DNA from: Prorocentrum cordatum
Taxonomy: Eukaryota
NCBI GenBank assembly: GCA_963575745.1
Contig: CAUYUJ010000248.1
Location: 434,001-498,000 of the forward strand
Direction of reading: 5' to 3'
DNA length: 64,000 bases
Shown piece by piece: positions 598 to 60,876 of this stretch. The notes below the pieces were generated by a model that saw only the letters and a list, made by a program, of their open reading frames with translations, searched no databases and was not told the origin of the DNA. Each line of letters starts with the position of its first letter. The stretch's first letter is position 1. Position numbers and translations under genes: made by a program.

Positions 598-6618
<6,021 letters not shown>

Positions 6619-12571: not shown

Positions 12572-14251
12572 ATGCGGCCGCCACTGTGGCGCGCCTGCGC
12601 CCGCCTGACCGCCTGGGGCGGCGACCTTCGGGAACCTCGGGCGGCGGTCGACATGGATATATTCGGGACCTGGGCTGGCCATTATCCATATCCACCACCT
12701 GCCGAGGTCCCCGAAGATCGCCACCTCAGGCGATGGCTGTGGATAAAGCCCCGCCTCGCAGAGGACGACTTCGAGGGAGGCCTCCGCATTTTCTGCACCA
12801 GCAACCTGGTGCCTCCGGAGGCCTTCCAAGACGTCTGGCACGTGATCTCCAGGGACTCGGACATACGCGAAGGTACACCCCTGCTCAGCGGGGAGGACTC
12901 GGCCCAGCTGCACACCATCCTGGTGTTCTGCAACCAGAACAGTTGCAACGAGGTCAAGAGGCTCTGTGACATCATCACGAACATAGATACGGGCAGCCAG
13001 GACGCCCCGCCGATGTTCTGGGTGCCCCACTCCGCTGCGCCTGGTTCCCAACGCCAAGACAACTCGGACTTAGTGAGGCCAGAGCTGGTGGGTGATCTCT
13101 TGCACAAGGGCCTGGACGGCATCGTGTGCGGCGAGCCAGCGGGGCTGCGACTCTCCATGGCCGTGCGCTCGATGATCCGCAAGTCGGCGAGCCTCTCGCG
13201 GAACCTGACCGAAATGGTCGCGGAGACCCGCTCGCGGACGCAGTACGCGGAGTATTTGCAGCATTGCGCGCACGCGACCCTGTGGGACTACGTGAGGGCC
13301 CGCCTGGCGCCCGAGATCCCGCCCGTCGACCACAACCTTGAGCCCGGAGAGCCGCAGGAGCTTCCCGGCTACATCATCGGGAACAAGCTCGGACAGGGGA
13401 TGTTTGGGTCTGTCTACAAGCTGACGGAGGGGCCCGGGGTGGGCAACAGGGTCCAGGTTGTCAAGGTGGTGTCCACTGAGGCCATCACGGAAATCAGAGA
13501 CTTGATGTACCTCAACCGCATGATCCGCGTGATGCAGATGCTGAGCGACGAGGAAACGCGTCACCCGAACATTATTCGCCTTCACCAGACATACCACTCG
13601 CCGACGCACATCATCTTTCGACTGGAGTACGGGGGCCCAGAGAACTTGTACCGCCGCCTGCACCACCGCCAAGCACTTCAGCCGGAGAAGCAGCGACCAC
13701 TGAGCATCGACAGGGTCGTGAAGATCGCCTCGCAGTGCGTCGAGGCAGTGTGGCACATGCACGCAGTGGTGCAGGTCTGCCACCGCGACATCAAGCCAGA
13801 AAATATCATCGTGAATGAGACACCCGAGACCATCACCATCAAGCTGGCCGACTTCGACCTCTCCGTCATCATCCAGGACGACAGCAAGATGTGCCAGAGC
13901 CCCTGCGGCACCGTGCCCTTCGCCGCCCCAGAGGTGCTCCGAGATGGTCCCGCCTTCGACCCCTGCCCAGCGGACATCTGGAGCCTGGGCGTCGTGCTCG
14001 CGGAGGTATTCTGCGGGGTGCGTGTGGTGGAGCTCGCGATCAAGGACGCAGAACCAGAGGTGCGGCCAGAGGGCGAAAACACAACGTTCACCGAGTGCAT
14101 CCAGACCTTCTTCCAGATGCCTGCCGCGGTTGCCAACATGCTGGAGAAGAGTTGCCGCCCAGAGCTCCGCTCACTGCTGCCCACCTGCAGTGCGATGCTC
14201 ACAGGGATGCTGGTGGTCGACCCCACTCAGAGGATCGGAGGCGTCATCTAA
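12572..14251 (+). CDS. Intronless Ser/Thr protein kinase (CAMK-like), atypical DFD motif; possibly a 3'-truncated retrocopy
   Basis: 559-aa ORF with GQGMFGSVY, VVK, HPNII, HRDIKPEN, ADFDLS, CGTVPFAAPEV, DIWSLGV and DPTQR. It stops four residues after the subdomain XI Arg and runs into repeat DNA. Confidence 0.9.
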   Translation: MRPPLWRACARLTAWGGDLREPRAAVDMDIFGTWAGHYPYPPPAEVPEDRHLRRWLWIKPRLAEDDFEGGLRIFCTSNLVPPEAFQDVWHVISRDSDIREGTPLLSGEDSAQLHTILVFCNQNSCNEVKRLCDIITNIDTGSQDAPPMFWVPHSAAPGSQRQDNSDLVRPELVGDLLHKGLDGIVCGEPAGLRLSMAVRSMIRKSASLSRNLTEMVAETRSRTQYAEYLQHCAHATLWDYVRARLAPEIPPVDHNLEPGEPQELPGYIIGNKLGQGMFGSVYKLTEGPGVGNRVQVVKVVSTEAITEIRDLMYLNRMIRVMQMLSDEETRHPNIIRLHQTYHSPTHIIFRLEYGGPENLYRRLHHRQALQPEKQRPLSIDRVVKIASQCVEAVWHMHAVVQVCHRDIKPENIIVNETPETITIKLADFDLSVIIQDDSKMCQSPCGTVPFAAPEVLRDGPAFDPCPADIWSLGVVLAEVFCGVRVVELAIKDAEPEVRPEGENTTFTECIQTFFQMPAAVANMLEKSCRPELRSLLPTCSAMLTGMLVVDPTQRIGGVI

Positions 14252-14460
14252 ATGCCCACCTCACCGATATCTGGGCCAGGCCAGGACCAGTGCATGGGTG
14301 TGCCCTCCTCTAGGCTGGCTTCTGGTGTGGCTTTCCGGTGTTGCCTTTTCTGTGTTCTTGCTATGCTGTTGCCATGTGACTGTGATGATATTGGCACGCT
14401 GATGCCATATTATGGCCATGCCTGAACCATATTATTGACGCTCCGCGTATCCCCACCAGC

Positions 14461-14712
14461 TCTGACTCACACCGAGCGATCGACCTCTGCGTGTTTATGG
14501 TCGCGCCGCAGCGCCATTTTGGCTACGCTTACTTGCTGGTCGCCACCGGGGTTTCCAACGCCACCGGGTTTGAGAGTATCGGTTCTGGCTCTTCTTCTGA
14601 GTGGCTGCCCGCGCGCTCGCTTCGCTTGCCTTTCTTTTCCTGCTGCCTAGTCGCGGCCCGACTAGTGTTCGGACGGCTTTCGACCCGCCTCGCGAGCCTG
14701 TTGACCAAAAAA
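14461..14712 (+). mobile_element. Short retroelement insertion (5'-truncated LINE 3' end or SINE) with A6 tail
   Basis: Flanked by the direct repeat GTATCCCCACCAGC (14447-14460 and 14713-14726) and ends in AAAAAA. Shares two motifs with the 3' end of the giant element. Confidence 0.85.
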
Positions 14713-15315
14713 GTATCCCCACCAGCCCATTCAGCAACGAGGCCCAGACGAGTTGCCCTGATCAGAGAAGGGGGGGGAGGGGCACAAAGGACTCGGGAAG
14801 CCTTCATACCCCAACAGGGGGAAGGTGGAGGATGAATCGGAGGAGATGGAGGAGGACACGGAGGAGGAGGAGGGGGGAGGAAAGAAAAGGAAGAGGGAGG
14901 ACGGAGAAGAAGTAAGAGGACGGTAAGAACGAAGAGGGCGAGCAGAAGAACAAGAGGCCGCTTGGCTGCCTCTCGGAGTCTCTTGGGATGTCTCCTGGGA
15001 GCTTCTTGGAGGCCTTTTGAAGCGTCTTGGGCGCCTCTTGGCGGTCCCGGGGGCATCTTGGAGCGTCTTCGGTGCCGCGGGGGAGCCTCTCGGGGCTCTT
15101 GAGGGGGCCGCTTGGGAGCCTCTTGGGGGCCTCTTGGGGCTTCCTGGGCGCCTCTTGGAGCCTCGTTGGGGCACTCTTGGGAGCCTTGGGGGCTCTCTGG
15201 GAGGCTCCCGAGGAGGTGGGTGGGTTGGTGGAGGGGCGGGGGGATGGGGGGGGGGGTGGGGGGCCGGTGAGGGTGGAGGGGGCGCGGAGAGAGGGGTGGA
15301 GGGGCGAGGGCGGGC

Positions 15316-16120
15316 CATGCTGTTGCCATGCTTTTGCCATGCAGTTGCCATGCAGATGCCATGCCATTGCCTTGCTATTGCCATGCAGTTGCCATGGAGT
15401 TGCCATGCAATTGCCGTGCAGTTGCCATGCAGTTGCCATGCTTTTGCCATGAAATTGCCATGCAGTTGCCATGCAATTGCCATGCTATTGCCATGCGATT
15501 GCCATGCAGTTGCCATGCAATTGCCCTGCCCTTGCCATGCTGTTGCCATGCAGTTGCCATGCAGTTGCCGTGCAGTTGCCATTCGGTTGTCATGCGGTTG
15601 CCATACAACTGCCATGCAGGTGCCATGCTAATGCAATGTTGCTGCCATGATATTGCCATACAATTGCCATGCAACTGCCCTGCCATTGCCATGCAGTTGC
15701 AATGCTATTGTCATGCTGCTGCCTTGCAATTGCCATACAGTTGCCATGCTATTGCCATGTTTTTGCCGTGCCGTTGCCATGCGATTGCCATGCTGTTGCC
15801 ATGCAGTGTCCATGCAATTGCCATGCAGTTGCCATGAAGATGCCATGTTATAGCCATGCTATTGCCATGCAACTTCCACGCAGTTGCCATGCTATTGGCA
15901 TGCAGTTGCCATGCTATTGTCATGCAGTTGCCATGCAATTGCCATGCTGTTGCCATGCTAGTGCAATGCTGTTGCCATGCTGTTTCCATGCTTTTGCCAT
16001 GCAGTTGTCATGCAAATGTCATGCTGTTGCCATGCTGATGCCATGAAGTTCCCCTGCTATTGCCATGCAGTTGCCATGCCATTGGTGTGCCATTGCCATG
16101 CTATTGCCATGCAATTGCCA
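15316..16120. repeat. 11-bp satellite (GTTGCCATGCA-type)
   Basis: Seen directly. Source of the spurious MLLPCCCHAVA ORFs. Confidence 0.95.
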
Positions 16121-16259
16121 TTCCTAGGCTGGCCTGGTGTGGTGTTCCGGTTTTGCCTTTTTCCGTGTCCGTGCTATGATTGTGCCATGTGATTGCCATG
16201 AGATTGGCACGCTGGTGCCGTACTATGGCCATGCCTGTACCATATTCTTGACACTTCGC

Positions 16260-16272
16260 GTATCCCTACCAG
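16260..16272 (+). repeat. Left target-site duplication of the giant retrotransposon (GTATCCCTACCAG)
   Basis: Identical 13-mer at 47772-47784, immediately after the (TA)n tail. Confidence 0.9.
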
Positions 16273-16294
16273 TCCGTAGCCCCTCTGGCTCAAG
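16273..16294 (+). other. Dinoflagellate spliced-leader relic
   Basis: TCCGTAGCCCCTCTGGCTCAAG matches DCCGTAGCCATTTTGGCTCAAG at 19/22 and begins at the first base after the TSD. Confidence 0.88.
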
Positions 16295-16705
16295 CCGTCT
16301 GGTGGGCCTGCCCTCTCCGGGGCAGTCTCCCGCCGCTCAAGGGGGCGCCCAGACGCTGCGCCGGGGGCCCGCGGCCCTGGACCCCCTCCAGCCCCGGGCG
16401 CGCCAGCCATCGCGAACGCCTTCCCGCCGCGCAGACGGGCTCAGCGGCCCGAGGCTCAGATCGGATCAGGACCGCTGCCTCATGTTTGGTCGGCCTGATA
16501 TAGCTTACGATCGATCGGCGACAATCCTGTCATCCCTGCGGGGGAAAGAGCCGCATCATCCGATGTCGGCCTCGGGACCACTGGGCCAAATGACTTTGGA
16601 CAGACTCGCCCTGGATCTCAGGACACCATCCCGCTGGGGCAACCGTCGCTCTCTGTTCCCTGGAATGGGAGCGTTTCGGCCGATGCTTCGGGCACGCGAG
16701 GACAA

Positions 16706-19700
16706 ATGGTCCCCAGCCAATCGGAGGGAGGGGCTGATCCCCTCAACACTGTGATACACACCGAACGTGCGACCTTCCGTCGCTACCCTGGACTTGAGAT
16801 CGACGGACGCGCAGCGGTAGACGGGGTTGATACGTTCAGCCCTCCGCTTCATACTGACAGCGCGACCTTCCGTCGCCATCCTGAAGGTAATAATGTCAGA
16901 CATGAGGCCCTCCCGCCCAGCTACCCTTCCCTTACCCCCACTCTTCCTCTGCCCACGGCTGGACGCCCAATCTCCTTTTCTCCAGGCAGCGCTGGGCACA
17001 GCGGGACCGCCCATGGCGATGCTAGGCTCACGGGGGCCGACGGGCCCACTCCTGAAGCAGTTTATTATCCCACGAACCCCCCTCCTCTCGGACAGTCTCG
17101 CGACGAGCCGGGAGTTGCCCTCGGCTCCCGACGCAGGGACCTCGATGGCGTGGATGGGGACTGTATGGACCCGACACCCCCAGCAAGCGCCCATGAAGGC
17201 GAAGTGGGGGGAGACGGGCAGTCACGTCGCCTCGGCCCCGTCGCGCATCCTAGGGGCTCTTGCCCTCACTCCGCCGTGCCCCCCTCTCTGGACGCGGCCG
17301 CCCCGAGTGAGGCTGCTCCCCACAACGGTTCGAGCATGGAAGACATGTCCTCAGGTTGCTGCGCGCACATCGATGCTGACACCACTCCAGGCCGCCTTCA
17401 GGAGCCTGACAGCGGCAGGCGTAGCATTGAAGGAGGGGGTAGTGCGGCCATCCCCACAATTCACACAGAACGCGCGGCCTTCCGTCGCTACCCTGGAACG
17501 GACTGCGACGGGCAGAGGAACGCCCGCGATGTTCAGCCCAGGGAACGGTGTGTAGGGGAAGAATGCACCAGGGAGCTGACCCCTGCGGGGGATGGTCGTG
17601 GCAACGTTGGCAGAGGACAACCCGACGCTGCGACCTTCCGTCGCTCCCATGGGCGCGATGACCTTGGGCACGAAGCCCTCCTGTCTAACCCAACCGCCTC
17701 TCTCACCCCCGCCGCTCCCATGCCCGCTGCAGGACGTCCAACTTCCCTCGCTCCAGGCGCTGTCGGTGAAACGACCCCAGGCGTCACCAGGGCTACGGGG
17801 GGAGAGGGCCCCGCTTCGGCACAAAACTCCCCCGCGGATCCAGTCTCGCTTAGGACAACCGACGAGGAACAGACAAACATCCGCCGCGGTCTTCCCAGGG
17901 GACAGGTTGACTCGGATGTTGCGCTCAGGGAGCTGATATCCTCAGGGGACGCTCACGAGGGCATAGGCAACAGGAGCGGGCAAGCCGCTGCCCGCAGCCC
18001 CTGCACGCCCCATCAAGGCTCACGCCAACCCACCGCCGACCCCCCCCCCTGGGCGTGCCCGCGCTGGGTGAGGCCGTCCCCGCTGGCGAGCTAAGCGGTG
18101 GAGCCACGCCTTCCACCTGTGAAGGGCATCCCGCCACCGACGCAGCATCCGACCGCTCCCGTGCACCCGAGAGCGGCAGGCATAATGTTGGAGAAGGGGG
18201 GGATGCAGACATTCCTGATATACACCCAAACCGTGCGACCTTCCGTCGCTACCCTGGAGCGGATGGCGGAAGGCTGGACGAGGCCCAAGGCGTTCGACCC
18301 AGGGAACAGTCGGACGGGGGAGCTAGGACCAGGGACCCTACCCCCACGGGGGTTGGACGGGGGTGCGGTGGTTATGTGCACCCCAGCGCTGCCGCCTCCA
18401 GTCGACCCACTGGAGACGAGAGCGCTAGGCACCACACTTAAGGAGTGGACGAGGCTCTCCCCCCCGCGATACACACAGAACGTGCGACCTTCCGTCGCTA
18501 CCCTGGACCGGACGACGGCGCGCAGAGAGAGGCGCACGGCGTTCAACCCAGGGATCGTTGGCAGAGGGAAGACATGACCTGTGACCCAGCCCCCACAGAG
18601 GCGGGACGGGACAGCGTCGTCAGTATACACGCTGATACCGCGGCCTCCCGGTGCCTCCCAGGAGCAGGCCACGGGCCGTGCCTCGCGCTTGAGGGAGGGG
18701 TGCGAGAGTCGGGGGTCCCCGGCTCCAGTGATCGCAGGGAGGCGCCCTCCTCCACAGGGATGATCGATCGCCTTTGTCTCGCCATGGGTTTGGCCGTTGG
18801 AAGGCCTGACGGGCCTCCTCGTTCGCCCAGCACCCCCAGGGTTGCTCCCGATCCCGCGGTCGGGGCCGCTCCTCATGTCGATCCGATCGATCGGGCAAGG
18901 TCTCCGATCCCGGCGGGTGGATCTCCTCGTGCCTTTCCTCCCTCGTCCACCAGCTCTTCCCCCGACTTCTCCCCTCCCGACCTGCCCCCTGGGCTCGAGT
19001 TTCTTAACACTGCGCTCGGTGGATGCCGTCGTGGACCTGACTCCTCGTCACAGGGCAGAGAGCGGGGGCCTCTCCTTTGGACGGACAGCGGCGCGCCCCT
19101 CGAGGTCAGCCACACGGCACACAGGGGCCCCGTCCTCACGGACCCCCCCTCCTACCCATCTCCAGATCTCGCCCTGGAAGATGATCTGCGAATGGAGAAC
19201 CCGCCCACCCCCTCAGACCTTGACGACCCCAGCCAAGCGCTGAGGAGCAGGGGGCAAAGCGCTGCGGACCTCCACGCACGGTGGCTGGACGCCACTGGGC
19301 ACACGAATGCTGACTGGGCGGCCAGCCGGGAGGCGGACGGACCCATCTGTGGCCCGCGCGTTGCAGACGCCAGGATCTCTGGCAGGGGGGGCACCATGAG
19401 GGCCCTACGCCGGCACCTTGTGCACACTGAGGGGCCATGGCGCGAGGTCCCCAACCGCGGAGCGCCGAGAACATCTCGTGAGACCAGCAACCTGGAGCTC
19501 CTCATACACCACGCGTGGAGGAGGCACCGCCCAGGCCACCCAGGCATACGAGCTGACAGCCCCATGCGCACGGCTCCTGTAGAACCAGCCCTCCCTGGAC
19601 GTTACTCCGAGGTCGCCACTTCAGCCCCAATTCTCGCTATCCTGGACCACACCTGGCTGGTATGGTCCATCACTGGAGGAGACTATGAAGGGCGTCTGGG

Positions 19701-21346: not shown

Positions 21347-24300
21347 TTGCCAGGCCTCCCCAAAGACCCCCCCCCAGTCCTGGAGGAGGGGCTTTCTCAA
21401 GCAGAGCGGTCGCAGCGGGACGCATTCATCGAGGAGGTGAGGAGAATCAGGGCGAGGGCCGCAAGCAACTCCGTCACCCCTGGCATGCGTTGGAGCAGTA
21501 TCTTGGTCCCCTTCATATGGGGCACAGCCACTAACAGAGGTCGAAACGTCCTCGAACTAGCCTTCAGGAGCAGCAACCTCAGCACCGCTATTATCGAACA
21601 TGCAGCAGCCTGGTGGAGAGCACGAGGAGTCAGCTCCTACAGGGATGCCCAGTTAGCACTCGCATCCGAAGCAGATATGGCGTCCAGGGCAGCTGGTGCC
21701 TCGCTCGAGGCCCCCGAGGTAGGCGGCTACATCGCACCCCAGCTCCAGGAGCGAATGATGCTGCACCTGGATGCAAGCGGCTTCCTTCAGACTGCCATCC
21801 TGTCTGGGGATCGGCAGGCGGTGGAGGCTGGAGCGAGGGTTCGGGCTCAAATGGCCAGTACCGGACCGAGGTCAAACCCAAGGAACAGCGGGCCCGCGAG
21901 CGAAGGCAGACCACGCCCTGGAGTAGAAACCGAAACTGTGGAAGCCGCAAGCACAACCACGCCATCGCACGCGGATATAAGACAGATGCTCAACCGGGCA
22001 AGCTTCGCTACTCCCCAGGGCAGGTTACCGGCTGGCAGTACCAGAGAAGGGCTCCTGGACGGACTCATACGCACTCTCGACGCCAGGCAGCGGGATGAAG
22101 AGGAGGCAGGCAGAGGTACCATGCCGGCCCCCGGAGAAAGGACCTCTGTCAATGGAGACCAGGCACAGTGCCTCGCACAAAGCATGCTCCTGGAACACAG
22201 GGTAGATCGACAACCGGGTCCCTGGATCTCTAGAGCCCTGTGGCTCTGCCTGGCCCCACACTACTTCCCCCTCCTCAAGCCAGTGCTGACTGCGCGGGCC
22301 CTGGACTCCCGACCCTACGACGTTCTCTACCGCTGGATGACCAGGAATGAGGTGCACACGCAGGAAGACCTCGTGGCCTGCCTTCGGAGGGACTTCCCGG
22401 ATGCCGATCTAGCTCCATACTCCGACCTCAGCAACTCACAAATCCAGGCCCTTATATCCCATCTCAGTGAAGGAGCTAGTCTGACGCACCTCGACGCCAG
22501 TGTGTCCGCCAGAGCCCTCATCGAGAGCCTGGGGGATGGCTTATCCCAACTTAGCCACCCTCCTGGGGACAGTGTCAGGCCCCCTCCGGAAAGCATGGAC
22601 GCCGTGGAAGTTCCTCCTTGGGACCGGGAGGTAGGAACCCCTCGATGCATGATCTGCTGCGAGGACATCTTAGGTTTCGCGGAAGCCCTGGTACCATGCG
22701 GCCACCTGTATCACGCCGAATGCCTGAAACAGTGGAGGATTAGCCAATCAGCGCAAGCCCTGTCCTACGGAAGATGCTTCCCAGTTAACTGTCCCATATG
22801 CCGCTCCGTCGATAGGGGCAGCGTCGCCGTAAGGATTCCAGACCGACCACGAGATGCCGACGCCGCGGACATTGCGGTACCACCAGACCTCCTACAGCTC
22901 CGCGACGGGACCCTTCTCCCACTGCAGCCCTTCCTGAGCCTGCAAGAGTTAGCCGATGCCTTCAGGCACCTGGCCCCAGATCTGGACTGCCTCAGAGCAC
23001 AAACACTCTCCATCCGACGTCCCCACACATACGTCACACTTTCAGACATGCGCAGAATCCACGCGCACGTTACCGAGAGGAGAACCGCGCAGGAGGCACG
23101 TCATGCCCCGATGGAAGTGGATGGGACCCCACCTGACGGCGGGAACGGTGGAAGCGGCATGGACTCCGACGACACCCACAACAGCACGCAGGGACCTGGG
23201 ACCTCGCCTCCGCAGCGACCCCCTGGTCCCACCAACAGGGCAGATAGGAGACGGCAAGCCCCGCGAATCACTTTCGGAAGATGGGCACTGCTACTGGGAC
23301 GGAACCCCCCAGAGGATGAACCCATGAGGAGGGGACCTGGGCGGTTCCCGGTAGGGCTGCTCACCGCGGCCGTCCGAGACATTGCAGCCGATCTGGTAAT
23401 TTCCAGAAGCACCTACCTCGGCGAACGTGTAGCGGATGAGACTGGAGTCACCTTTGCCCTCGCAGGCCCAGACGCCTGGGAGCAGATCAAAGCAGTAGTC
23501 TCGGAGCGCAGGAACCAGCCTCACGGGAGCGCCGCCCCAACAATCCTTGTGGTAGATGCCCTAGCTCAACACATGGATGCCGCCCTGACGGCAGCTGCCG
23601 CCGCGGGCAGCCCATGCTGTCTCGTCGCCCTGGCCACCGAGGGAGTGCCGTCACCTGGAGGACCGGATCCGGTCGAGCTCGCAGCCCTGGCAAACGCGCA
23701 GTGGGGATACCGAGCCGCCAGCAAAATTACCCATCTCGTGCCGATTGGACACCCCAACCGAACAGGCAAGCCCAGCCCACCAATGCAGCAACTCTTCGCC
23801 GCTCAGTTCGACCTAGAGGGCAGGACACTGCGCACGATCCTACCCCCGTCAATAGTTGTGCACTGGGGTGGAAGGAATGGGGACACCTCTGATGCGCTGC
23901 ACATCCTAACCCCTGAGAGCGGCAATGACGGCGTCGTTGCGCAGATCATGAGGTGGAGGGATGAACTAGGGCGATCCCACAACGGGATGATCGCAGCCGA
24001 CTGGGTCACCACGAGAGTGCAACTCCCCCGGGACGAGCTCCTGAGATGCCAGGGACTCGAGATGTTCTTCCACCACGTTCTCCGCTGCAGAGCAGCGAGA
24101 CCCACGAGCTGTGAGGACGGCATACGTGCCCCCCTGGATAATCTGCAGGCGGCAGCTCAAACCACCATGCTGGCCTACCAGACGGCATGCGCCCGGAGAA
24201 CACACGAGACAAGTGACTCTGTACACATCCCAGTTCCCCCCAGAGCGATCTGCATAGCCCACTCTGTAGCCTCCACAACAGCTGGAGCTATGGGACACAG

Positions 24301-26410
24301 AGTCGGAATTTGCTGGACGGGGCTTCTCCTGATCTCCACTCCAGAACGGATTGCCACCCCCGTCTTGAGGCACCTCCGAGACGAGCTACCGCGAGTCTTT
24401 GGGGACGCCTCCTCCTCCATGGCACTAGGACCGCGCCGCATCCTCCTGGAAGGACCGTGGGATGGAGGACCCTCATTGGTGCGCCTCTCTGACCCCGAGG
24501 ACGGCTTCCACCTAAGATGGAATCTCGCTGACATGGGACAAACACGGCCTGAGGACGTCCTGCAAGCCGTAGAGGCCACGGTTGGTCCTGGCACAGTCGA
24601 ACAGGTTTCCACCGTATACGCCTGGTTCCCAGACGTCTCTGACTACAGATACATGACGCAAGTTCGCATACGCTTAGCTGCGGCCGACGCCATGGCAGCA
24701 GCCCTCGTGGGCACCAGTTGTATTGTGATCGGAGCCCAGACTGTCAGGATCTTCCCCGCCACACCTAGCAGCGACCCCATGCACAGAGCGGCTGCGACAT
24801 CCAGGGAACTGCAAGAGAATGTGGACGCGCTGGCCAGCATCTCTGTACGACAGGCCCCCAGACGCGCCATTCAGCCCCAAGTCCTCGAGATCACCACTCT
24901 CGACAGGCACGGGACGCAGCTGGGAGAAATTCGCCCACGCAGCATGCGCCCTGACGCTTGGCTCCCTGGACACAGTACGCTTCGGCTCTTCTCTGCATCG
25001 GTCGGCTCAGCGAACGCCCAGCTACTAACTCGACTCTGGCCACTCCCGGATGGCCCGGACGGTACCTCACACCCAGCCAACACAAGAGCTGCCCCACCTA
25101 TCATCACGGGGGACTGGCTCCGAGATAACGCCAGGGCGATGAGCAGGAGCGCGCCCAATACGGTACCTAGCATGTCGCAGGGAAGTGGCCTACGGGACTA
25201 CGAAACCGCCCTACAGCCCGGAGAATACTTACTCGCCGCAATAGCGGCTGGCGGGGCCGTTGAGGTCACCACTAGCGGTGAGGCAGGTTTCCTTTTCACT
25301 TCGGTCCCCACCTGGGCGACGGTGCTCCTCCCTGCGGACGCGGACACCAGGGCAGCCACGAGGGGTGCTGACAGACCACAAGCGAGACTCAAACTTCAGC
25401 TTGCCGCGGGCCCCATCCACGTTGCACGCCTGGACTCTGCCCCCGCAGCCACACCAACTCCCGCTTCAGTGGGGCTGAGGGTCCACGCTCCCGCCCAACA
25501 GCCACTTCCTAGACGTACCTCGGCTTCACTCAACCCACTCCCTGGACCCGCCAGACCCACTCACTTTCCGGAGCTCGCCGAGGTACTAGTGCGTGCGTGC
25601 AGGCCGCCCCCGGCCGAACTGGTAAGAGCCGATGAAGATGCGGTCCGCATCGCGCGGGGGATGTTGGGTAGATACGCTGCCGTGGTCCCGGAACAAGCAG
25701 TGCTCGACATGGCGCGCGGCGTCCAACGCCGGATTGCCTTCGAAATCCGCAGACAGTTCGAGGGCCGGCCCATACAGAGGTACAACTGGGACATGTTCGC
25801 CGCCATCTGGATCCTGCAACTAGCAAAACCGGGGAGCCTGGACCGAGACCACGTTTGGCATTTCATACGAGAGCTCGGGATCCGAGAAGAAGTCACGAGA
25901 CAGCTCCCTTTCACCCAATGGCTCGCGCCTGAGCCTGACGGCACCTACTCAGCCCACCAGCCCTGGCTCGAGGTCCCTGGATCCAGAGGTGCAGACGTTG
26001 ACGCCACCACGGCGCTCCCAGTCCCGGAAGGTGTCTCGAATGCCCTGGACGCCCTGATCAACAGGCTGTCCAACCTACACTGGGAGGAGCGACAGCGCCA
26101 TGACCCCGGGAGAGTCACCCGGGGACGGAGAGGCACCTCACAGACCCCCAGAACCGCCGGAGCGGGAGACAGACCCACGGACAACCCAGGTTCGAGCCAG
26201 CGCAGAAGCCGCAGTCGGGCGAACAATGAGGCGGACGTGGCAGGTATGCAAGCAAGTGACGCCAGACCACCTACTGCGACAGGCCCTAGACCGCCAGCCG
26301 CACCTGCAAGCCCCGGGCTCCCCACGTCGGTGACACCACAGACTTGCGCAAACCCCAGCGGAGGGGCCAACGACAACCCGACACTCACCGCACAGGGAGC
26401 GCAACCTTGA
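21347..26410 (+). CDS. 1687-aa element ORF with a RING-H2 finger (~22646-22804)
   Basis: CMICCEDILGFAEALVPCGHLYHAECLKQW...CPICR has C3H2C3 spacing. The rest is not recognised. Confidence 0.8.
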   Translation: MPGLPKDPPPVLEEGLSQAERSQRDAFIEEVRRIRARAASNSVTPGMRWSSILVPFIWGTATNRGRNVLELAFRSSNLSTAIIEHAAAWWRARGVSSYRDAQLALASEADMASRAAGASLEAPEVGGYIAPQLQERMMLHLDASGFLQTAILSGDRQAVEAGARVRAQMASTGPRSNPRNSGPASEGRPRPGVETETVEAASTTTPSHADIRQMLNRASFATPQGRLPAGSTREGLLDGLIRTLDARQRDEEEAGRGTMPAPGERTSVNGDQAQCLAQSMLLEHRVDRQPGPWISRALWLCLAPHYFPLLKPVLTARALDSRPYDVLYRWMTRNEVHTQEDLVACLRRDFPDADLAPYSDLSNSQIQALISHLSEGASLTHLDASVSARALIESLGDGLSQLSHPPGDSVRPPPESMDAVEVPPWDREVGTPRCMICCEDILGFAEALVPCGHLYHAECLKQWRISQSAQALSYGRCFPVNCPICRSVDRGSVAVRIPDRPRDADAADIAVPPDLLQLRDGTLLPLQPFLSLQELADAFRHLAPDLDCLRAQTLSIRRPHTYVTLSDMRRIHAHVTERRTAQEARHAPMEVDGTPPDGGNGGSGMDSDDTHNSTQGPGTSPPQRPPGPTNRADRRRQAPRITFGRWALLLGRNPPEDEPMRRGPGRFPVGLLTAAVRDIAADLVISRSTYLGERVADETGVTFALAGPDAWEQIKAVVSERRNQPHGSAAPTILVVDALAQHMDAALTAAAAAGSPCCLVALATEGVPSPGGPDPVELAALANAQWGYRAASKITHLVPIGHPNRTGKPSPPMQQLFAAQFDLEGRTLRTILPPSIVVHWGGRNGDTSDALHILTPESGNDGVVAQIMRWRDELGRSHNGMIAADWVTTRVQLPRDELLRCQGLEMFFHHVLRCRAARPTSCEDGIRAPLDNLQAAAQTTMLAYQTACARRTHETSDSVHIPVPPRAICIAHSVASTTAGAMGHRVGICWTGLLLISTPERIATPVLRHLRDELPRVFGDASSSMALGPRRILLEGPWDGGPSLVRLSDPEDGFHLRWNLADMGQTRPEDVLQAVEATVGPGTVEQVSTVYAWFPDVSDYRYMTQVRIRLAAADAMAAALVGTSCIVIGAQTVRIFPATPSSDPMHRAAATSRELQENVDALASISVRQAPRRAIQPQVLEITTLDRHGTQLGEIRPRSMRPDAWLPGHSTLRLFSASVGSANAQLLTRLWPLPDGPDGTSHPANTRAAPPIITGDWLRDNARAMSRSAPNTVPSMSQGSGLRDYETALQPGEYLLAAIAAGGAVEVTTSGEAGFLFTSVPTWATVLLPADADTRAATRGADRPQARLKLQLAAGPIHVARLDSAPAATPTPASVGLRVHAPAQQPLPRRTSASLNPLPGPARPTHFPELAEVLVRACRPPPAELVRADEDAVRIARGMLGRYAAVVPEQAVLDMARGVQRRIAFEIRRQFEGRPIQRYNWDMFAAIWILQLAKPGSLDRDHVWHFIRELGIREEVTRQLPFTQWLAPEPDGTYSAHQPWLEVPGSRGADVDATTALPVPEGVSNALDALINRLSNLHWEERQRHDPGRVTRGRRGTSQTPRTAGAGDRPTDNPGSSQRRSRSRANNEADVAGMQASDARPPTATGPRPPAAPASPGLPTSVTPQTCANPSGGANDNPTLTAQGAQP

Positions 26411-29316: not shown

Positions 29317-29737
29317 TCGCCAGCGAAGGAAAAGCGAGGGCCTGGGCGGGATGGCCCTTGGCCCACGGCAGAGAACATGGACTCGGATCCCATCTCCGGA
29401 GGAGCGGGCCCGAGCAGTGGGCCTGGGCTCTTACTATCGGTCCCTGGACGTCAGTGGAAAGAAACTCTACGACGCCGTGGGGGCCCACCTGGACCCGAGA
29501 TGCCTACAGCGCAGACTTGCGACCGCCATACTGGATTGGAGTAGGAGCGAGAACATCTCCGGGTGCCAACACGAAGCTCCGACAGAGGGCCAGATCTGGG
29601 CCACATGGAGACAGGCACGCAGGTTCGCCGACAGGAGCTGCCCTTGGGCGCCGCTCGCCGGGAACCCTTGTCCAGACGACATAGTCCGAGCCAGGCTGCA
29701 GCAACAGCTCCTAGATCAAGGGTCGCCGTTCCCCTAG
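26417..29737 (+). pseudogene. Pro/Arg-rich linker followed by a disrupted C5-cytosine DNA methyltransferase domain (~28361-29520)
   Basis: Motif I LVSLFDEWGLARLA, II FVEF, IV-like AGLPGASLS, GLAGS*TVQFF, VI-like CCEC, VIII IDSAATVASPRDRLW, IX RIPSPEERARAVGL, X LYDAVGAHLDP. Broken by TAG 28730, a C10 run and a (GA)n tract. Confidence 0.75.
29269..29313. repeat. (GA)n microsatellite inside the DNMT region
   Basis: Seen directly. Confidence 0.95.
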
Positions 29738-29900
29738 ACTCGCCTGAAGACCCAGGGACGCTTCATCTCGCCCTTGGGTCTCCCCCGCTCGCAACTCTCG
29801 TTCCGGGGGCGAGAACCAGAGCTTGGCAACTAGCCTGCTCCTCCCTGAGCCGCGCCCTCGCCCTGCACAGTAACCACACCGTCCGGCGACCGCGAGCCCT

Positions 29901-32900
29901 TTGGGCTTTCTTACACACTACCCCCTGGAGCAACCCCACCTGGGCGGACCTCTGCGGGGCCCTTTCCCTTCGTTCACTTATCGATGCCATCTCCAACGCC
30001 ACGCAAGCCGGTTCACTCAAGGTGGGCTGTTGGAACGTTGGTACCTCAAAAGCACGACTGTTCACAAGAACATGATTAAGCATGCCTTCTTGACGCAGAT
30101 GACCACCAACGGTAGGATCGGACTCATTCAGGAGACCCACTGGACAGAACACGAGGCTGCCGTCTGGTCCACCATGTTTCACGCCCGCACACTTGTCGCC
30201 TCTCCAGCCTACATTGGACCAGCCGGGGGTTGCGCCGGCGGAGTGGCGATCATCATTCCTCACGGCACCACACTCCTCCGGGCGGAAGACCTCGTCCCCG
30301 GATGTGCCGTTGCGGCCACCATGAGCCGAGGTGACAGCACCTACCGCCTGGTCTCGGTTTACCTCCCTCCCTCCAGGAAAGCCGAAACCATTGATGCCAT
30401 CAGGCAAGCCATCGAAAGGTGGGACGACACCCCTACATACTGGGGAGGGGACGTCAACATCCAGTTGGACAATCCCAGGGACGGTGAAACAGATGAGGCA
30501 GCGGCCCTGGCTGACCTGCTCTCACTGACTGGTTCAAGCGTCTGCCATTGCGATGGCCCCACAAGAGTGGACGCGGACAATGAACCACAGATCGACATCG
30601 TTGCCTGCCCCTTTCGTCAGCTCGGTGCCTACGGGGTCAGAAAGGCCTGGAAACCCTCAGTCTCCGACCACGCCATCCTTTACATGGAGCCGCAGGGCGC
30701 CCCCAGAACTCGCCGGGACAACACCATTCGCGCGGGCGACCTCCGCCTACTCCCAAGCGAGGCGCATGCTGAATTAAGGACTCTGTACTCCTTTCTTGGG
30801 CGCACCTTCGGGTTGCCGGACATCGACCTGACCGGCCTCCTTCAACCCGCCGACTGGGTCCGCCCGGCCACCCCTGGTCAATTCCCAGCCAGTCACTGCG
30901 ACAACGACGACGGCGAAGGGGAAAGGGAGCAGGAGACCTCCACTCCTCCCCCGGCCCCTAATCCGGGTGATGACCACACCGTCCCGCTTCTGCCCGCCCT
31001 CCTCACGCTTGGTCGCCACGCTCTGTCAGCCGCAATACAGGACTGGTGGAGGAAGTGGCGCAGAAGCAAAACCAACCGCTCGCCAGGGACCCTGCTTGCG
31101 GCCGCGGTAAGAGCGGATTCCACGACGCGCCCGGTGGGAGCGCTTGCTGCCTGGCTCGCGGAATACGAGTGGGACGGCAACGACTTAACACCTCAGCAGG
31201 CTGCCCTCTGGCTGCGAAGGTGGGACAATGACGCAGCGCAGAGACGCGCCACCCGCCTCACGCCCGCGCAAAGGGGCCCCGGAGTGGAGCGCCCCGCGCT
31301 TGCCTCTCACTACCGGACGGGGCGAGAAATCTTCGTCAGGACGCATGCCATCCTTGGAGTGCGCGACGAAGATGGAAGCTGGAAGGAGCGCACCAAGGAA
31401 GTTGACGACGTCCTATGGCGGAGCCGGAGTCCGATCTGGCAAACCGCCCCTCCTCTCCCCCCTACAGCGGACGGCATCCTAAACGAGTACTTCAAACAAA
31501 AGGACACGGGGCACTTCCCACACTCTCCCAGCCCACAGTGGGGCAGGATAGCCTCCCTCGTGCTGGGGCCTAGCGGCAGCGCCCCCGGTGTTGACGGTGA
31601 GCCGTACGAGCTGTATCATCCCGGTGCGCGCTTTGTTGCTGGACTCCTCGCCCAAGCCTGGTACGCCGCGGCACTGAACCCACGGCTCCTGGACCTGGCC
31701 CTTGGCCCCTCCGTCGACCTTCTGGTCTGGATCGGCAAGAAACCGGCCGCAGAGCGCCCTAACGACATGCGTGCCTTGCAACTCCCCACTTGCCTACGGA
31801 GACTGCATGGAGCGACCATTGCCGATTGCCTTGGCCCCGTGATTGAACCCAGGCTTAGCCCCAATCAAGCTGCCAAGCGCGGGGGACAGTGCGGCCCCAA
31901 CATCACCGCTGCCACCGACCATCTTGCCCTGGATCCCGTCCCCGACACCGAACCCGGGCCCTCCTGGACCGCCCTGCTTGGCGCACACCAAGAAGCTGTT
32001 GACCGCTATATACTGGACGCCGCTCGGCAACTAGGCCCTGCCCCGAGCACGGCTGTTCTCTTCTGCGATCAAAACAAAGCTTTCGAGCGCATATCCATAC
32101 AGTGGATGGGGCAGCTGGCAAGGCGTTGGCAGCTCCCGACCTGGCTCCTGCACTCCGTGGACTGCCTCGTCGGTAGCAGGAGCGCACGCACCTGCAAGGG
32201 TAGGTACAACATCAGAATAAGGAAGCTCTTACGGTCCATCGGAATGGGAGGCACCGCCTCCCCGCTCCTCTGGTGCCTAGGATACGACCCTCTCATCAGC
32301 GCCCTGGCCGACATCACCGGGGCGGACGATCCGACTTACGTGGACGACCTCGCTGCCCTGCTGGGCGCCACCGCCCAATCACTGCGCGCCGGCATCGCCT
32401 TGCCCTGGCTCGCAAGAGCGGCGGGGCTCCTCGTCGAAGCCCACCAGTGCAGGGGCATTGCAGCCCCATCCGGTATCAACATCAGGCAGTACCTGGACAA
32501 CGCCCCGGTGGACTTCAGCGATGATGGCACCACCACAACTGTTACAGGCCTGCCTGCCGGGCTCCTCCTGGAAATGATCAGTCGCGCTGCTGGCTCCAGT
32601 ATTGCGGCTCAGTGTTCTCCCTGGACCAGCCCATGCATGTGCAAATTTAAAACGGCCCTGGTCCCCGCCAGCAACCACGATTGGTGGAGACGCACCATGG
32701 ACTTCACCCCTTTCGGCTCGTCCGCCGTCCGTCCCCAGTGGCCCTATCTCGGCGCCTGCGTCGTATCTAGGGCTGCCGAAGGGGAAAATCTACCGCCCAG
32801 GGGGAGAATGACAAAGGGACAACTCGACGCCCTCGTCGCCGGCACCTGGGGCAAACCCCTCCCCAAGCTGCGGGGCCGGGCCATGGCCCTCCACCGTGCA

Positions 32901-33197
32901 AGCATGTCTCCCACTAAAACCGCCCTCGCCTGGAACACCTACCTCATCGCGCTCATCCCGTACCCATCCCACTACTCCCTCCCTGACACCGTGCAAGAAA
33001 GGGCACTCAGGGCACACCTGCGGGTAGCCCTTGGTCTTGCCTCTGCCTCCTGGACCCCAGACAACATCCTCACTGGCCTGGGCATCCGCTTCCAAGTCCC
33101 TGGCTGCCCCAAATGCCCGGTTGCTACCTCGCGTGCGATCGCGGCCAGGGCGCACGCCCTTGACGACCTGTGGGGGCCCCATACAGGCGAGACATAA
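29901..33197 (+). CDS. APE (EEP) endonuclease plus non-LTR reverse transcriptase
   Basis: EN: LKVGCWNV (adjacent frame, ~30016), IQETHW, GGVAI, VSVYLP, GGDVN, IDIV, SDH. RT: SAPGVDG, RALQL, DQNKAFERI, IGMGGTASPLLW, YVDDL (32337), WPYLG. Confidence 0.95.
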   Translation: MGFLTHYPLEQPHLGGPLRGPFPSFTYRCHLQRHASRFTQGGLLERWYLKSTTVHKNMIKHAFLTQMTTNGRIGLIQETHWTEHEAAVWSTMFHARTLVASPAYIGPAGGCAGGVAIIIPHGTTLLRAEDLVPGCAVAATMSRGDSTYRLVSVYLPPSRKAETIDAIRQAIERWDDTPTYWGGDVNIQLDNPRDGETDEAAALADLLSLTGSSVCHCDGPTRVDADNEPQIDIVACPFRQLGAYGVRKAWKPSVSDHAILYMEPQGAPRTRRDNTIRAGDLRLLPSEAHAELRTLYSFLGRTFGLPDIDLTGLLQPADWVRPATPGQFPASHCDNDDGEGEREQETSTPPPAPNPGDDHTVPLLPALLTLGRHALSAAIQDWWRKWRRSKTNRSPGTLLAAAVRADSTTRPVGALAAWLAEYEWDGNDLTPQQAALWLRRWDNDAAQRRATRLTPAQRGPGVERPALASHYRTGREIFVRTHAILGVRDEDGSWKERTKEVDDVLWRSRSPIWQTAPPLPPTADGILNEYFKQKDTGHFPHSPSPQWGRIASLVLGPSGSAPGVDGEPYELYHPGARFVAGLLAQAWYAAALNPRLLDLALGPSVDLLVWIGKKPAAERPNDMRALQLPTCLRRLHGATIADCLGPVIEPRLSPNQAAKRGGQCGPNITAATDHLALDPVPDTEPGPSWTALLGAHQEAVDRYILDAARQLGPAPSTAVLFCDQNKAFERISIQWMGQLARRWQLPTWLLHSVDCLVGSRSARTCKGRYNIRIRKLLRSIGMGGTASPLLWCLGYDPLISALADITGADDPTYVDDLAALLGATAQSLRAGIALPWLARAAGLLVEAHQCRGIAAPSGINIRQYLDNAPVDFSDDGTTTTVTGLPAGLLLEMISRAAGSSIAAQCSPWTSPCMCKFKTALVPASNHDWWRRTMDFTPFGSSAVRPQWPYLGACVVSRAAEGENLPPRGRMTKGQLDALVAGTWGKPLPKLRGRAMALHRASMSPTKTALAWNTYLIALIPYPSHYSLPDTVQERALRAHLRVALGLASASWTPDNILTGLGIRFQVPGCPKCPVATSRAIAARAHALDDLWGPHTGET

Positions 33198-35092
33198 GGC
33201 GGGGAGAAGGTGGAGCAAACTCGTGAAATTGGCGCGGGACTTCGCCCCTCGGGATGAGCCACGTAGGCCCGGCTCCAAGGTGCTGACCGACGCCAGGGCC
33301 GCTGACCTTTTCAATCGCGCCATGAGAGAGCCCCCTAGGCGCCGGGCTCGCTACTTCGGGCGCGTAGTTTACGTCGCGGCCTGGACGCAGCTCCACGGGC
33401 ACGTGGTGAGCTCCTGGTTCTCCACAAGCAGCCACGAACGTAGGTGGGCCCAAACAGACGGTGCGGAATGGTCCCTTCTCGGGCACTGCGCCTGCTTCAC
33501 CGAGGCGCACCACGTCCTCCGCGTTCTGGCCAACGGACTACCCGGATCCGCGCGTAGACGAAGCGTCGCTGACAGGATCCCCCACCAGTGCGGCTGCGGC
33601 AGGATGGCCAATAGAGTCTGGCTCACCGCTGGACAACGAGATCGCGGTCAGGCCTGGTGCGACTCGCGCCTCGGACCCTGGACCGGAGAGGCCTCCCTCT
33701 GGCCCCTCCTTGGCGACGACGCTTTGCCCGAGGACTTGCGTCCACTTGCTGCGGAGAGAAGAGGACAACTCGGAGACATCACCGTTCCAATACGGCAAGG
33801 ACTCTACGGAGCCTGCCCTCTCTGCGGCCTGGGAGAAGCCACTACTGAGCACGCGTGGGGCTGGTGCCCCGCCGCCGCCCTCGCCTGGGAAAAGACCAAA
33901 GGCCCTGACCACCCCAGAGACCTTCCCACCGCGATATGCCCCAGGCGGCAGCACCAGAGACTGGTCTGCCGCCTTCTACACCAGATCTCCTTTAGATACT
34001 GTGTGAACCTGGACTGTGCCCCCATCGGAGCCGACGAAGCCGCCAGAATCATTGTCCAGGGAATCTCCGTACCAGACACCGACCTCCAGGAAGACAATGA
34101 GGAGGAAGACGACATACAAGAAGGGCAGGCCCCTGCTGCACCGGCGGACGAAACTGCAGTCTGGGCCCCCATGCTGCTCCCCTGTCAACTTTGCAATCCC
34201 CAAGGCCCGCACCTGCTGCGCATTCAGGGGGCCGCTGGTCCGCATCTCGGCGGACAAGCTCCACGCGCTGGAGGGGAAATCCGGCACCTCCCTGTCACGA
34301 CCAGGATCGTGCGGAGTGGGGATCGGCTCGCCGTTCTCCAATCGGGCGACACCAGAGCGAGTTGGATGCCGCCTGGGTTGGGCTGGTTCCCCTGCCCCAG
34401 GACAGACAGGTCCCCCAGTGCCCTCTGGACCAAGAGCTACCGCCGACTCTGCGACCTGCATACCCTGGTGCTCAGAGCCAGCAGGGACATGGAAGCTGGC
34501 GAGGAGATCACCGTCAGAGACTCTCCGCCCCCCGCTGCCGATGCGGCCCAATGGCCCTTTGAGCTCACCTTCGACGGGGGGGCTCGCCGAATTGGGGGAG
34601 ACGACAAGGTCTCCGGGGCGGCAGCTGTCCTCTGGAAACACGACCCGCACCGCGGCTACCCTCGCGTCGTCGCGGTTGCCGTTGTTGCCCTCCCGGGCTG
34701 CGACAATGCACAGACGGCGAAGGCATCCGGGTGCAGAGCGGGACTCGCCCTGCTCCCCCACCTTGACACCACCCTCCGAGGTGCCCGGGGTGGTCGGCGA
34801 CAATCTTGCCGCCATCCGGTACGGAGCTGGCACGGGCCGCTATCGCCGGCTCTACCTGGCACAGCAGATGGACTTCGCCCTTCGGCAAGCAAGCGAAGCC
34901 GGATGGACACTTACATGGCAGGCCGTGCGTCGTCGCCTCAACAAAGCAGCTGACCGTCTTGCCACACTAGGTGTCTTCTGGGCCGATGCCCTTCGACGCG
35001 CCGGCGATCTAGCCGTCACTTCCTGGGTCGTCTGGGAGGGCTCCCAGCTGCCCCCCCCCCCTGTTTCCTGCCGCGGACATCGACCTCTGTGA
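33031..35092 (+). pseudogene. RT C-terminal region: CCHC zinc knuckle, SET-like segment, RNase HI (frameshifted)
   Basis: CPLCGLGEATTEHAWGWCP; LRASRDMEAGEEITV; FDGGAR...SGAAAVLW...NAQTAKA; then in the 34016 frame VVGDN...WQAVRRRLNKAADRLA. Confidence 0.8.
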
Positions 35093-35261
35093 CTTGGACC
35101 AAGTTGCGCTGTTTGTTGATGCCCTCGAAAATCCCCCCCCTCCCCCCCCTCTGATCGCCCCCCGCCGCGACACACTAAGGTCCTGACGGGTCGCAGCGTC
35201 ACTGCCATCACAAGAAGCGCAGCCATCCGCTGCCACCCTGGACCGGTTCCCACCCTAGACA

Positions 35262-40025: not shown

Positions 40026-40063
40026 TCCGTTCAAGCGAAAACCAACCGAGCGAAAACCAATCC

Positions 40064-40866
40064 AGAGCAGCAGAGAGCAGCAGAGAGCAGCAGAGAGCAG
40101 CAGCAGAACAGCAGAGAGCAGCAGCAGAACAGCAGAGAGCAGCAGCAGAACAGCAGAGAGCAGCAGCAGAACAGCAGAGAGCAGCAGCAGAGCAGCAGCA
40201 GCAGAACAGCAGAGAGCAGCAGCAGAACAGCAGAGAGCAGCAGCAGAACAGCAGAGAGCAGCAGCAGAACAGCAGAGAGCAGCAGCAGAACAGCAGAGAG
40301 CAGCAGCAGAACAGCAGAGAGCAGCAGCAGAACAGCAGAGAGCAGCAGCAGAACAGCAGAGAGCAGCAGCAGAACAGCAGAGAGCAGCAGCAGAACAGCA
40401 GAGAGCAGCAGCAGAACAGCAGAGAGCAGCAGCAGAACAGCAGAGAGCAGCAGCAGAGCAGCAGCAGAGACAGCAGAGAGCAGCAGCAGAACAGCAGAGA
40501 GCAGCAGCAGAACAGCAGAGAGCAGCAGCAGAACAGCAGAGAGCAGCAGCAGAACAGCAGAGAGCAGCAGCAGAACAGCAGAGAGCAGCAGCAGAGCAGC
40601 AGCAGAACAGCAGCAGAGCAGCAGCAGAACAGCAGAGAGCAGCAGCAGAGCAGCAGCAGAACAGCAGCAGAACAGCAGCAGAACAGCAGAGAGCAGCAGC
40701 AGAGCAGCAGAGAGCAGCAGCAGAAGCAGCAGAACAGCAGAGAGCAGCAGAGAGCAGAGAGAGAGCAGTAGAGAGCAGCAGAAGAACAGCAGAGAGCAGC
40801 AGAGCAGCAGCAGAACAGCAGAGAGCAGCAGCAGAACAGCAGAGAGCAGCAGCAGAGCAGCAGAGA
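40064..40866. repeat. 21-bp minisatellite (AGCAGCAGCAGAACAGCAGAG)
   Basis: Seen directly; the + strand is almost T-free. Confidence 0.95.
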
Positions 40867-40876
40867 ATCAGATAGC

Positions 40877-43800: not shown

Positions 43801-43910
43801 GTGAGTTCCTGGGGCGCCAGACAGAGCCGGGAACCGGAATTTCGGGGGTTTTCCAGCCTCGACCTCTCCAAAATCGTGGTTCCCGCCATCTTCTGGGCTG
43901 CCGTGGGTTC
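40877..43910. repeat. ~101-bp tandem satellite, about 30 copies
   Basis: AAAATCATGGTTCCCGCCATCCTCGGGGCCGCCGTGGG... recurs at 40877, 40978, 41078 and onward. Confidence 0.96.
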
Positions 43911-47728: not shown

Positions 47729-47737
47729 TATATATAT

Positions 47738-47771
<34 letters not shown>
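47729..47771 (+). repeat. (TA)n 3' tail of the giant retrotransposon
   Basis: Directly precedes the right TSD. Confidence 0.9.
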
Positions 47772-47775
<4 letters not shown>

Positions 47776-60853: not shown

Positions 60854-60876
60854 TCCGTAGCCATTTTTGGCTCAAG
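60854..60876 (+). other. Dinoflagellate spliced-leader relic
   Basis: TCCGTAGCCATTTTTGGCTCAAG is the consensus plus one T. Confidence 0.95.

Follow-up and report, generated by a model that had tools for sequence, protein, structure and literature searches.

Long interspersed nuclear elements (LINEs) that combine an apurinic/apyrimidinic-type (APE) endonuclease with a defined insertion target include R1, TRAS and SART in the R1 clade, and Tx1L, Keno and others in the Tx1 clade. In the part of the published account that deals with target choice, the target-specific APE LINEs are assigned to these two clades and multicopy targets are the rule (PMC4640811). The present analysis concerns a 64-kb stretch of the genome of the dinoflagellate Prorocentrum cordatum (GenBank assembly GCA_963575745.1, contig CAUYUJ010000248.1, positions 434,001 to 498,000 of the forward strand), hereafter called the window. 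Here, two adjacent copies of a host repeat are interrupted at the same nucleotide, one by a short A-tailed insert and the other by a LINE-like element of 31.5 kb (the large element) that encodes an APE endonuclease and a reverse transcriptase. Window coordinates are used throughout, and all features listed are on the + strand.

The locus resembles the R1 and Tx1 elements in joining APE and reverse transcriptase domains to a multicopy target that is entered at one exact nucleotide, with a fixed duplication length. It differs from them in its dinoflagellate host, in a target that is a species-level repeat rather than rDNA, telomere or snRNA, and in a body of 31.5 kb that contains RING and helicase open reading frames (ORFs); two to three junctions are known, and the likeness is one of behaviour. 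The second comparison is with L1, which has a loose nick consensus and variable duplication lengths, and with the short interspersed nuclear elements (SINEs) and processed copies that L1 mobilises in trans. The best structure matches of the predicted enzyme are L1 endonuclease chains, and the short insert, like an L1-mobilised SINE, is A-tailed, non-autonomous and flanked by a target-site duplication. Unlike in L1, both nick positions are common to two events, and the large element ends in (TA)n, not in poly(A). No description of a site-specific LINE in dinoflagellates was found in the open-access and bioRxiv library searched.

Each copy of the host repeat has the order L, 13-mer, R, 11-bp satellite. 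The two copies, their duplications and their inserts are as follows.

14310–14446, +: L of host repeat copy 1, the degenerate end of an 11-bp GCCATGCAGTT-type satellite
14447–14459, +: left target-site duplication of the short insert, GTATCCCCACCAG
14460–14712, +: short insert, 253 bp, member of a repeated family, with an A6 tail at 14707–14712
14713–14725, +: right target-site duplication of the short insert, GTATCCCCACCAG
14726–15313, +: R of host repeat copy 1, 81.9% alike to 47772–48389
15314–16121, +: 11-bp satellite array closing copy 1, 73.5 copies of GCCATGCAGTT (Tandem Repeats Finder)
16124–16259, +: L' of host repeat copy 2, by similarity to the left flank of copy 1
16260–16272, +: left target-site duplication of the large element, GTATCCCTACCAG
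16273–47771, +: large LINE-like element, 31,499 bp, between perfect 13-bp duplications inside one repeat copy
47772–47784, +: right target-site duplication of the large element, GTATCCCTACCAG
47785–48389, +: R' of host repeat copy 2, followed by satellite at 48403–48736

The left flanks of the two copies (14310–14459 and 16124–16272) are 84.1% alike over 151 columns and the right flanks (14713–15314 and 47772–48389) 81.9% alike over 625 columns, and on both sides the homology stops exactly at the 13-mer. The pattern GTATCCCYACCAG has exactly four matches in the window at up to one mismatch, at 14447 and 14713 with C and at 16260 and 47772 with T; the chance expectation is 0.11, and four matches were reached in none of 100 shuffles. 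The junctions of copy 1 read TTGACGCTCCGC / GTATCCCCACCAG / CTCTGAC...GACCAAAAAA / GTATCCCCACCAG / CCCATTC, and those of copy 2 read TTGACACTTCGC / GTATCCCTACCAG / TCCGTAGCC...(TA)n T / GTATCCCTACCAG / CCCGTCC. Both duplication pairs are perfect (13/13), each with its own copy-specific base, and the duplication is 13 bp long in both events, with identical first and last base. Within the head of R, a conserved GCCCAGACGAGTTGCCCTG is located 17 nt downstream of the 13-mer. The state before insertion would be a two-unit tandem repeat, of which each unit is now split and its 13-mer duplicated.

A preliminary description, made from the letters alone, had stated that two neighbouring host-repeat copies were cut at the same nucleotide, and the four 13-mers, arranged as two perfect pairs in homologous flanks, bear this out, as does the C pair and T pair its statement that each duplication pair has a base of its own. 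Its account of the short insert was right as to the A tail and one nucleotide short as to the length, which was given as 252 bp. The term "host repeat" is apt in that the copies are homologous; it does not describe a simple repeat, as R is high-copy and L low-copy in the DNA run of a related organism (see below).

In LINEs, which integrate by target-primed reverse transcription, the tail-proximal junction corresponds to the first nick and the 5' junction to the second. We are highly confident that this process struck the two-unit tandem repeat twice, independently, at one position. The first nick falls in the bottom strand, 5'-...GGGATAC^GCG-3', between C and G of the top-strand ...CGC^GTATCCC..., and the second cuts the top strand at ...YACCAG^CCC, 13 nt further along, giving the 13-bp duplications. 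One event delivered the LINE-like element of 31.5 kb, whose genes include that for the APE endonuclease and reverse transcriptase; what was inserted in the other was a non-autonomous RNA of 253 bp from a repeated family.

Duplication length and nick positions are constant across the two events. Since the nicks are identical on both strands in two events that involved different RNAs, the simplest cause would be an APE endonuclease that, together with its DNA-binding parts, recognises this sequence. Site preference driven by the endonuclease is thus in our view the best explanation of the locus, with a probability of roughly 0.6, and the specificity would be located in the element's own endonuclease. 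It is very probable that the two insertions were independent and followed the divergence of the targets at the C/T base. The earlier claim of separate events after divergence is strengthened by perfect pairs with their own base, set against a repeat divergence of 16–18%, and by inserts that are unrelated. That the family as a whole uses the site, with family-wide specificity of the R1/Tx1 kind, is plausible. Family copies at the target nucleotide comprise both insertions in the window (2/2) and one junction in a metagenome contig (X2 record 10), a further contig (X1 record 5) being ambiguous. Of the target-site specificity first proposed, the identical nick positions are firm, and the family-wide part extrapolates from two events and X2 record 10.

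The gene for the predicted enzyme was delimited by a tblastn search with an intact relative, P0002.

29725–35062, +: APE endonuclease / reverse transcriptase / RNase H-like gene, in four frame pieces

Mapping of P0002 onto the window places three frameshifts in the reverse transcriptase gene, and these are either real or assembly errors. The ORF at 29874–33197 (P0001) has Pfam matches to RVT_1 and Exo_endo_phos_2, both weak. A search at E up to 1e-3, with 8000 candidates scored, yielded nine relatives of P0001 (815–1851 aa, 62–37% identity), and a family profile, A3, built from these ten sequences was run against PDB. The profile matched L1 endonuclease variants and L1 ORF2p (E 2.4e-11 to 1.8e-7, profile positions 103–318), the R2 reverse transcriptase (E 1.6e-7) and the TRAS1 endonuclease (E 1.2e-5); its scores of 36.7 bits for the L1 and 25.9 bits for the TRAS1 endonuclease are not decisive for clade. 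Among the relatives, Pfam Exo_endo_phos exceeds its cut-off of 24.5 in P0006 (36.2 bits) and P0008 (43.7 bits), and a C-terminal RNase H-like RVT_3 is also found. P0001 has the YVDD motif, and its neighbours in the protein atlas are RVT_1 and Exo_endo_phos clusters. An APE-like endonuclease domain is thus placed N-terminal to the reverse transcriptase by the family profile and the relatives, and the reverse transcriptase domain is indicated by the profile, the motif and the atlas neighbours. The pairing of an APE-type endonuclease with a reverse transcriptase is confirmed by the PDB matches of A3 and by Pfam in the relatives.

Copies outside the window were sought in sequencing runs. X1 comes from the DNA of a related organism, with a kinase gene ~97% alike to the one in the window, and X2, an estuary metagenome, also contains a contig (X2 record 9) with 100% identity to 14138–14396; runs X5 and X7 contain essentially the kinase gene only. 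Depth is one figure per contig in these runs, from which no copy numbers are derivable. In X1, the kinase gene and L are covered by 1–3 contigs at a depth of 4–13 (at 14340, 3 contigs at 4–11). The short insert is covered by at least 8–16 distinct contigs at a depth of 270–975, compared with 5–13 for the neighbouring kinase gene, and at least 87 contigs cover position 14741 in the head of R. By these contig counts, the short insert is one member of a repeated family, and the sequence that has the target at its head is multicopy. X2 record 10 (221 nt) matches 14526–14728 at ~87%, differing in 26 letters and having 5 gaps; this diverged copy of the short family reads on past the A tail and across the 13-mer as far as CCC, and so provides a third such junction.

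Other comparisons were negative or uninformative. An empty-site joint from 14459 to 14713 was not among the 15 of 36 joints listed, and loose ends at the junctions were not among the 24 of 466 listed, neither of which is evidence either way; a joint linking 14459 with 14845 (1 contig, side 25) allows no interpretation. A scan of genome contigs with the conserved 19-mer of R returned a single unrelated bacterial metagenome-assembled genome, and the viral contigs had no match to the target pattern, P0001 or profile A3.

Several points weigh against a site-specific family. Only two events are at hand, plus one contig, and that contig (X2 record 10) may have arisen by co-amplification and not by an insertion of its own. 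The match of X1 record 5, a short-family copy, ends at 14708 with 22 or 46 letters over, and its flank may be different. L is low-copy in X1 while R is high-copy; the matches of X1 record 4 and X5 record 23 end at 14439 and 14438, 8 nt before the 13-mer, and an uninterrupted L–13-mer–R target was seen nowhere in the runs compared. The two inserts have different tails, A6 and (TA)n, and bodies that are unrelated apart from one short box. As to the enzyme, P0001 stays below the curated Pfam cut-offs (RVT_1, 22.8 bits against 29.6, E 8.3e-5; Exo_endo_phos_2, 19.2 against 27.4), the large element's reverse transcriptase gene carries the three frameshifts, and the best database relative is only 62% identical, so there is no sign that the large element is multicopy.

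Some of these points would suit a local hotspot, in which a weakly selective endonuclease, or DNA structure or chromatin by the satellite, drew insertions of a family that otherwise inserts widely. We consider this the strongest of the alternatives, if still an unlikely one. It would account for there being only two events, both in one 2-kb tandem repeat, and for a differing 3' flank of X1 record 5, should it differ; the preference of profile A3 for the non-specific L1 endonuclease over the target-specific TRAS1 endonuclease also points in this direction. A mere hotspot is harder to reconcile with first- and second-strand nicks that are identical in two events, with a duplication of 13 bp both times, and with the recurrence of the same junction in a third, ~13% diverged copy (X2 record 10).

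The match of X5 record 23 is followed by 186 unlike letters beyond 14438. The high-copy R sequence may begin near 14438–14440, in which case the target would be part of another repeated element, ~20 nt in from its edge.

A box near the 3' ends is the one similarity between the two inserts.

14511–14529, +: box GCGCCATTTTGGCTACGCT in the short insert, common to the 3' region of the large element
47505–47523, +: box GCGCCATTTTGGCTGCGCT in the large element, common to the short insert

BLAST found no similarity between the inserts at E 1e-3, and Smith-Waterman alignment found a single common block, GCGCCATTTTGGCT[A/G]CGCT, at 14511 and 47505. Within it, CCATTTTGGCT occurs only twice in the window, inside the box of the short insert and at 47508. 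The boxes agree at 18/19 positions, for which ~0.002 matches would be expected by chance. At 14510 the X1 majority is C, in 16 contigs, and at 14525 it is G, in 10 contigs; these are the letters of the large element at 47504 and 47519, so that on the majority letters the box is identical at 20/20 positions. In both inserts it is situated ~180–260 nt before the 3' end, and the minimum-free-energy structure shows it as a small hairpin in which the GCC...GGC arms are paired. The common 3' region is confined to these 19–20 nt, the rest of the last 250 nt being not above chance. It had been noted beforehand that the inserts and their tails differ, and this is confirmed by the absence of a common 5' or 3' end.

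The short insert itself gave no Rfam match (whole window; 14300–14800 at E up to 1), and ARAGORN found no tRNA in 14000–17000. A SINE-type head derived from tRNA, 5S or 7SL is thus not seen by Rfam and ARAGORN. There is no spliced leader at its 5' end, and the ORF across the insert and both junctions had no significant protein match among 89 candidates scored.

Because of the 19–20-nt box in common with the 3' untranslated region (UTR) of the large element, the short RNA probably owed its mobility to the large element's enzyme or to a sister of it, which would have engaged the RNA through the hairpin-forming box. The short insert would then be a partner of the large element. The different tails and unrelated bodies might instead suggest two unrelated retrotransposition machineries, or a staggered break made by the host, at one site; in the two-machinery version an L1-like enzyme that depends on poly(A) inserted the short A-tailed RNA, and the large element, with its (TA)n tail, used an enzyme of its own. 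We regard this as improbable: the box at a similar 3' distance argues for a common template-recognition element, and convergence of two enzymes on both nicks is less parsimonious. A metagenome scan with the box gave 19 loci, all of them chance matches of 22–34 nt, with the 13-mer in none.

A further alternative is a single ancestral insertion after which the repeat was duplicated, with the short insert as a deletion derivative or with one insert having replaced the other. A tandem repeat makes duplication after insertion conceivable, and X2 record 10 shows that insert and target can occur together in diverged copies. If insertion had preceded duplication, however, the inserts should be ~82–84% alike, the duplications should have decayed and the C/T changes would have to be parallel, none of which fits. 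No match to either end of the large element is found in the short insert, and only the 19-nt box is common to the two, although the host copies are 82–84% alike, and each duplication pair is perfect with its own base; the probability that both pairs remained 13/13 is ~0.006–0.011 at 16–18% divergence. Derivation of the short insert by deletion was tried as a candidate and rejected on the same grounds, since BLAST and Smith-Waterman show the box only. A single insertion is thus very hard to sustain. Least credible of all is a false join in the assembly that left one junction not genomic, as high-copy R (in X1) and frameshifts readable as long-read indel errors might suggest, since such a join would not yield matched 13-mers with a copy-specific base around each insert, and an independent run holds the contig identical to 14138–14396.

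Beyond the enzyme gene and the box, the large element has the following features.

16273–16294, +: spliced-leader-like 5' end, TCCGTAGCCCCTCTGGCTCAAG, 19/22 match to DinoSL
21347–26410, +: ORF of 1687 aa with a RING finger (Pfam zf-RING_2, E 1.3e-6, 29 bits, cut-off 27.3)
35259–40025, +: ORF of 1588 aa with an SF1 (Upf1/Sen1-like) helicase core (Pfam AAA_11 and AAA_12, E ~6e-27)
40063–43907, +: internal tandem repeats, one 21-bp array and two 101-bp arrays, ~3.8 kb
47729–47771, +: 3' tail of 43 nt, (TA)5 GA (TA)15 T; no other (TA)n run in the window reaches 5 units

As in LINEs, there are no terminal repeats, the 3' tail is simple and target-site duplications flank the element. Its size is far beyond that of usual LINEs. 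Every long ORF is on the + strand and the ORFs are nearly continuous; no similarity of the element to the rest of the window was found. Outside the tandem arrays, the only long internal repeat is a 142-nt pair of 75% identity. Nested poly(A)-tailed insertions were considered as a source of the element's length and rejected, the window having no A8+, T8+ or further (TA)n run.

The RING ORF lies upstream and the helicase ORF downstream of the reverse transcriptase gene. The helicase ORF has a sole close relative, P0033, at 50% identity, the other hits scoring at most 103 bits (107 hits in all). The longest contig is 15,598 bp for both P0033 and the reverse transcriptase relative P0016, and from this equality the two genes may be linked in a relative element. 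LINEs with an SF1 helicase are known in insects (TRAS, Jockey), where a helicase of viral origin forms part of a fused polyprotein, according to the section of the source concerned with these elements (PMC6338049). The large element is similar to these in the association of a LINE reverse transcriptase with an SF1 helicase; it is unlike them in that the helicase is a separate Upf1/Sen1-like ORF downstream.

The dinoflagellate spliced leader, DinoSL, is given as DCCGUAGCCAUUUUGGCUCAAG in the portion of the source that reports it (PMC2606063). The stretch at 16273 is the only match in the window to its 21-nt core at up to 3 mismatches, where 0 are expected, and this relict leader stands at the exact 5' end of the large element. 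Its 3 changes from the canonical leader fall in the Sm-like core, despite the perfect duplications around the element, and are unexplained. A second, degenerate stretch ending in GCTCAAG is present at 16326–16342, ~45 nt downstream of the 5' leader-like sequence, and may be an older relict leader. In beginning with a leader copy the large element resembles DinoSL-tagged dinoflagellate retrogenes, from which it differs in being an autonomous retroelement and not a copy of a host gene.

Spliced-leader exons are themselves among the LINE targets named in the part of the account cited at the outset (PMC4640811). Like the elements CRE/SLACS/CZAR and NeSL, the large element would be a site-specific LINE tied to the biology of trans-splicing. 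Those elements have a restriction-like endonuclease and insert in the leader gene; here the endonuclease is of APE type and the target is not a leader gene, and resemblance to the leader is confined to the 5' end of the element itself and an internal box.

We advance with considerable reserve, as a rather unlikely extension of endonuclease-driven site preference, the view that giant site-specific APE LINEs of dinoflagellates are tied to spliced-leader trans-splicing through insertion site, 5' leader and 3' handle. Insertion would occur right after the AG of pyrimidine-rich YACCAG, at the head of a transcribed high-copy repeat. Since the target ends in a pyrimidine-rich stretch and AG, with the leader-like 22-mer directly after, read-through transcripts of the host could be trans-spliced near the junction. 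Read-through RNA trans-spliced at or near the element's first base would furnish a capped, leader-bearing full-length template, and such a template would explain the leader-like 5' end. The box in the 3' UTR hairpin, leader-derived and Sm-site-like on this scheme, would serve as a handle for the element's own RNA and for that of its short parasitic partner.

Target-specific LINEs are natural models for programmable RNA-templated DNA insertion, and few sharply specific APE-type lineages are known. A dinoflagellate example, if true, would extend their range to another group of hosts and another target, with an unusually large cargo of 31.5 kb between the duplications. It would also bear on site choice in retroposition, a large-scale shaper of dinoflagellate genomes, and on trans-splicing as a process that feeds templates to retroelements. 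The practical gain would be a defined, 13-mer-centred target for the endonuclease domain.

Other features of the window concern its repeats and genes. It is GC-rich (~51–70% in 2-kb steps), with many tandem repeats throughout. At its start, a 6-kb array at 600–6617 consists of ~2000 copies of the trinucleotide GAC (72% matches) and produces a strong AT skew. Two more large arrays of the 11-bp satellite that closes the host repeat (TTGCCATGCAN), at 50041–52713 and 54345–56695, have no R sequence before them, and the latter terminates in an inverted satellite segment (~56696–56740). A 54-bp block just past the stop codon of the kinase gene (14256–14309) recurs with 87% identity at 57125–57178, ~430 bp after the second of these arrays. 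Contigs of the kinase gene from three organisms (X1, X5 and X7) end their match at 14235, 14 nt before the stop codon, and the gene copy in the window seems to have a 3' end different from that of the abundant copies (14235–14251). Near the far end of the window, a near-canonical relict spliced leader with one extra T, TCCGTAGCCATTTTTGGCTCAAG, is found at 60855–60877 directly after a CT-rich tract, and probably marks where a retroposed gene on the + strand begins.

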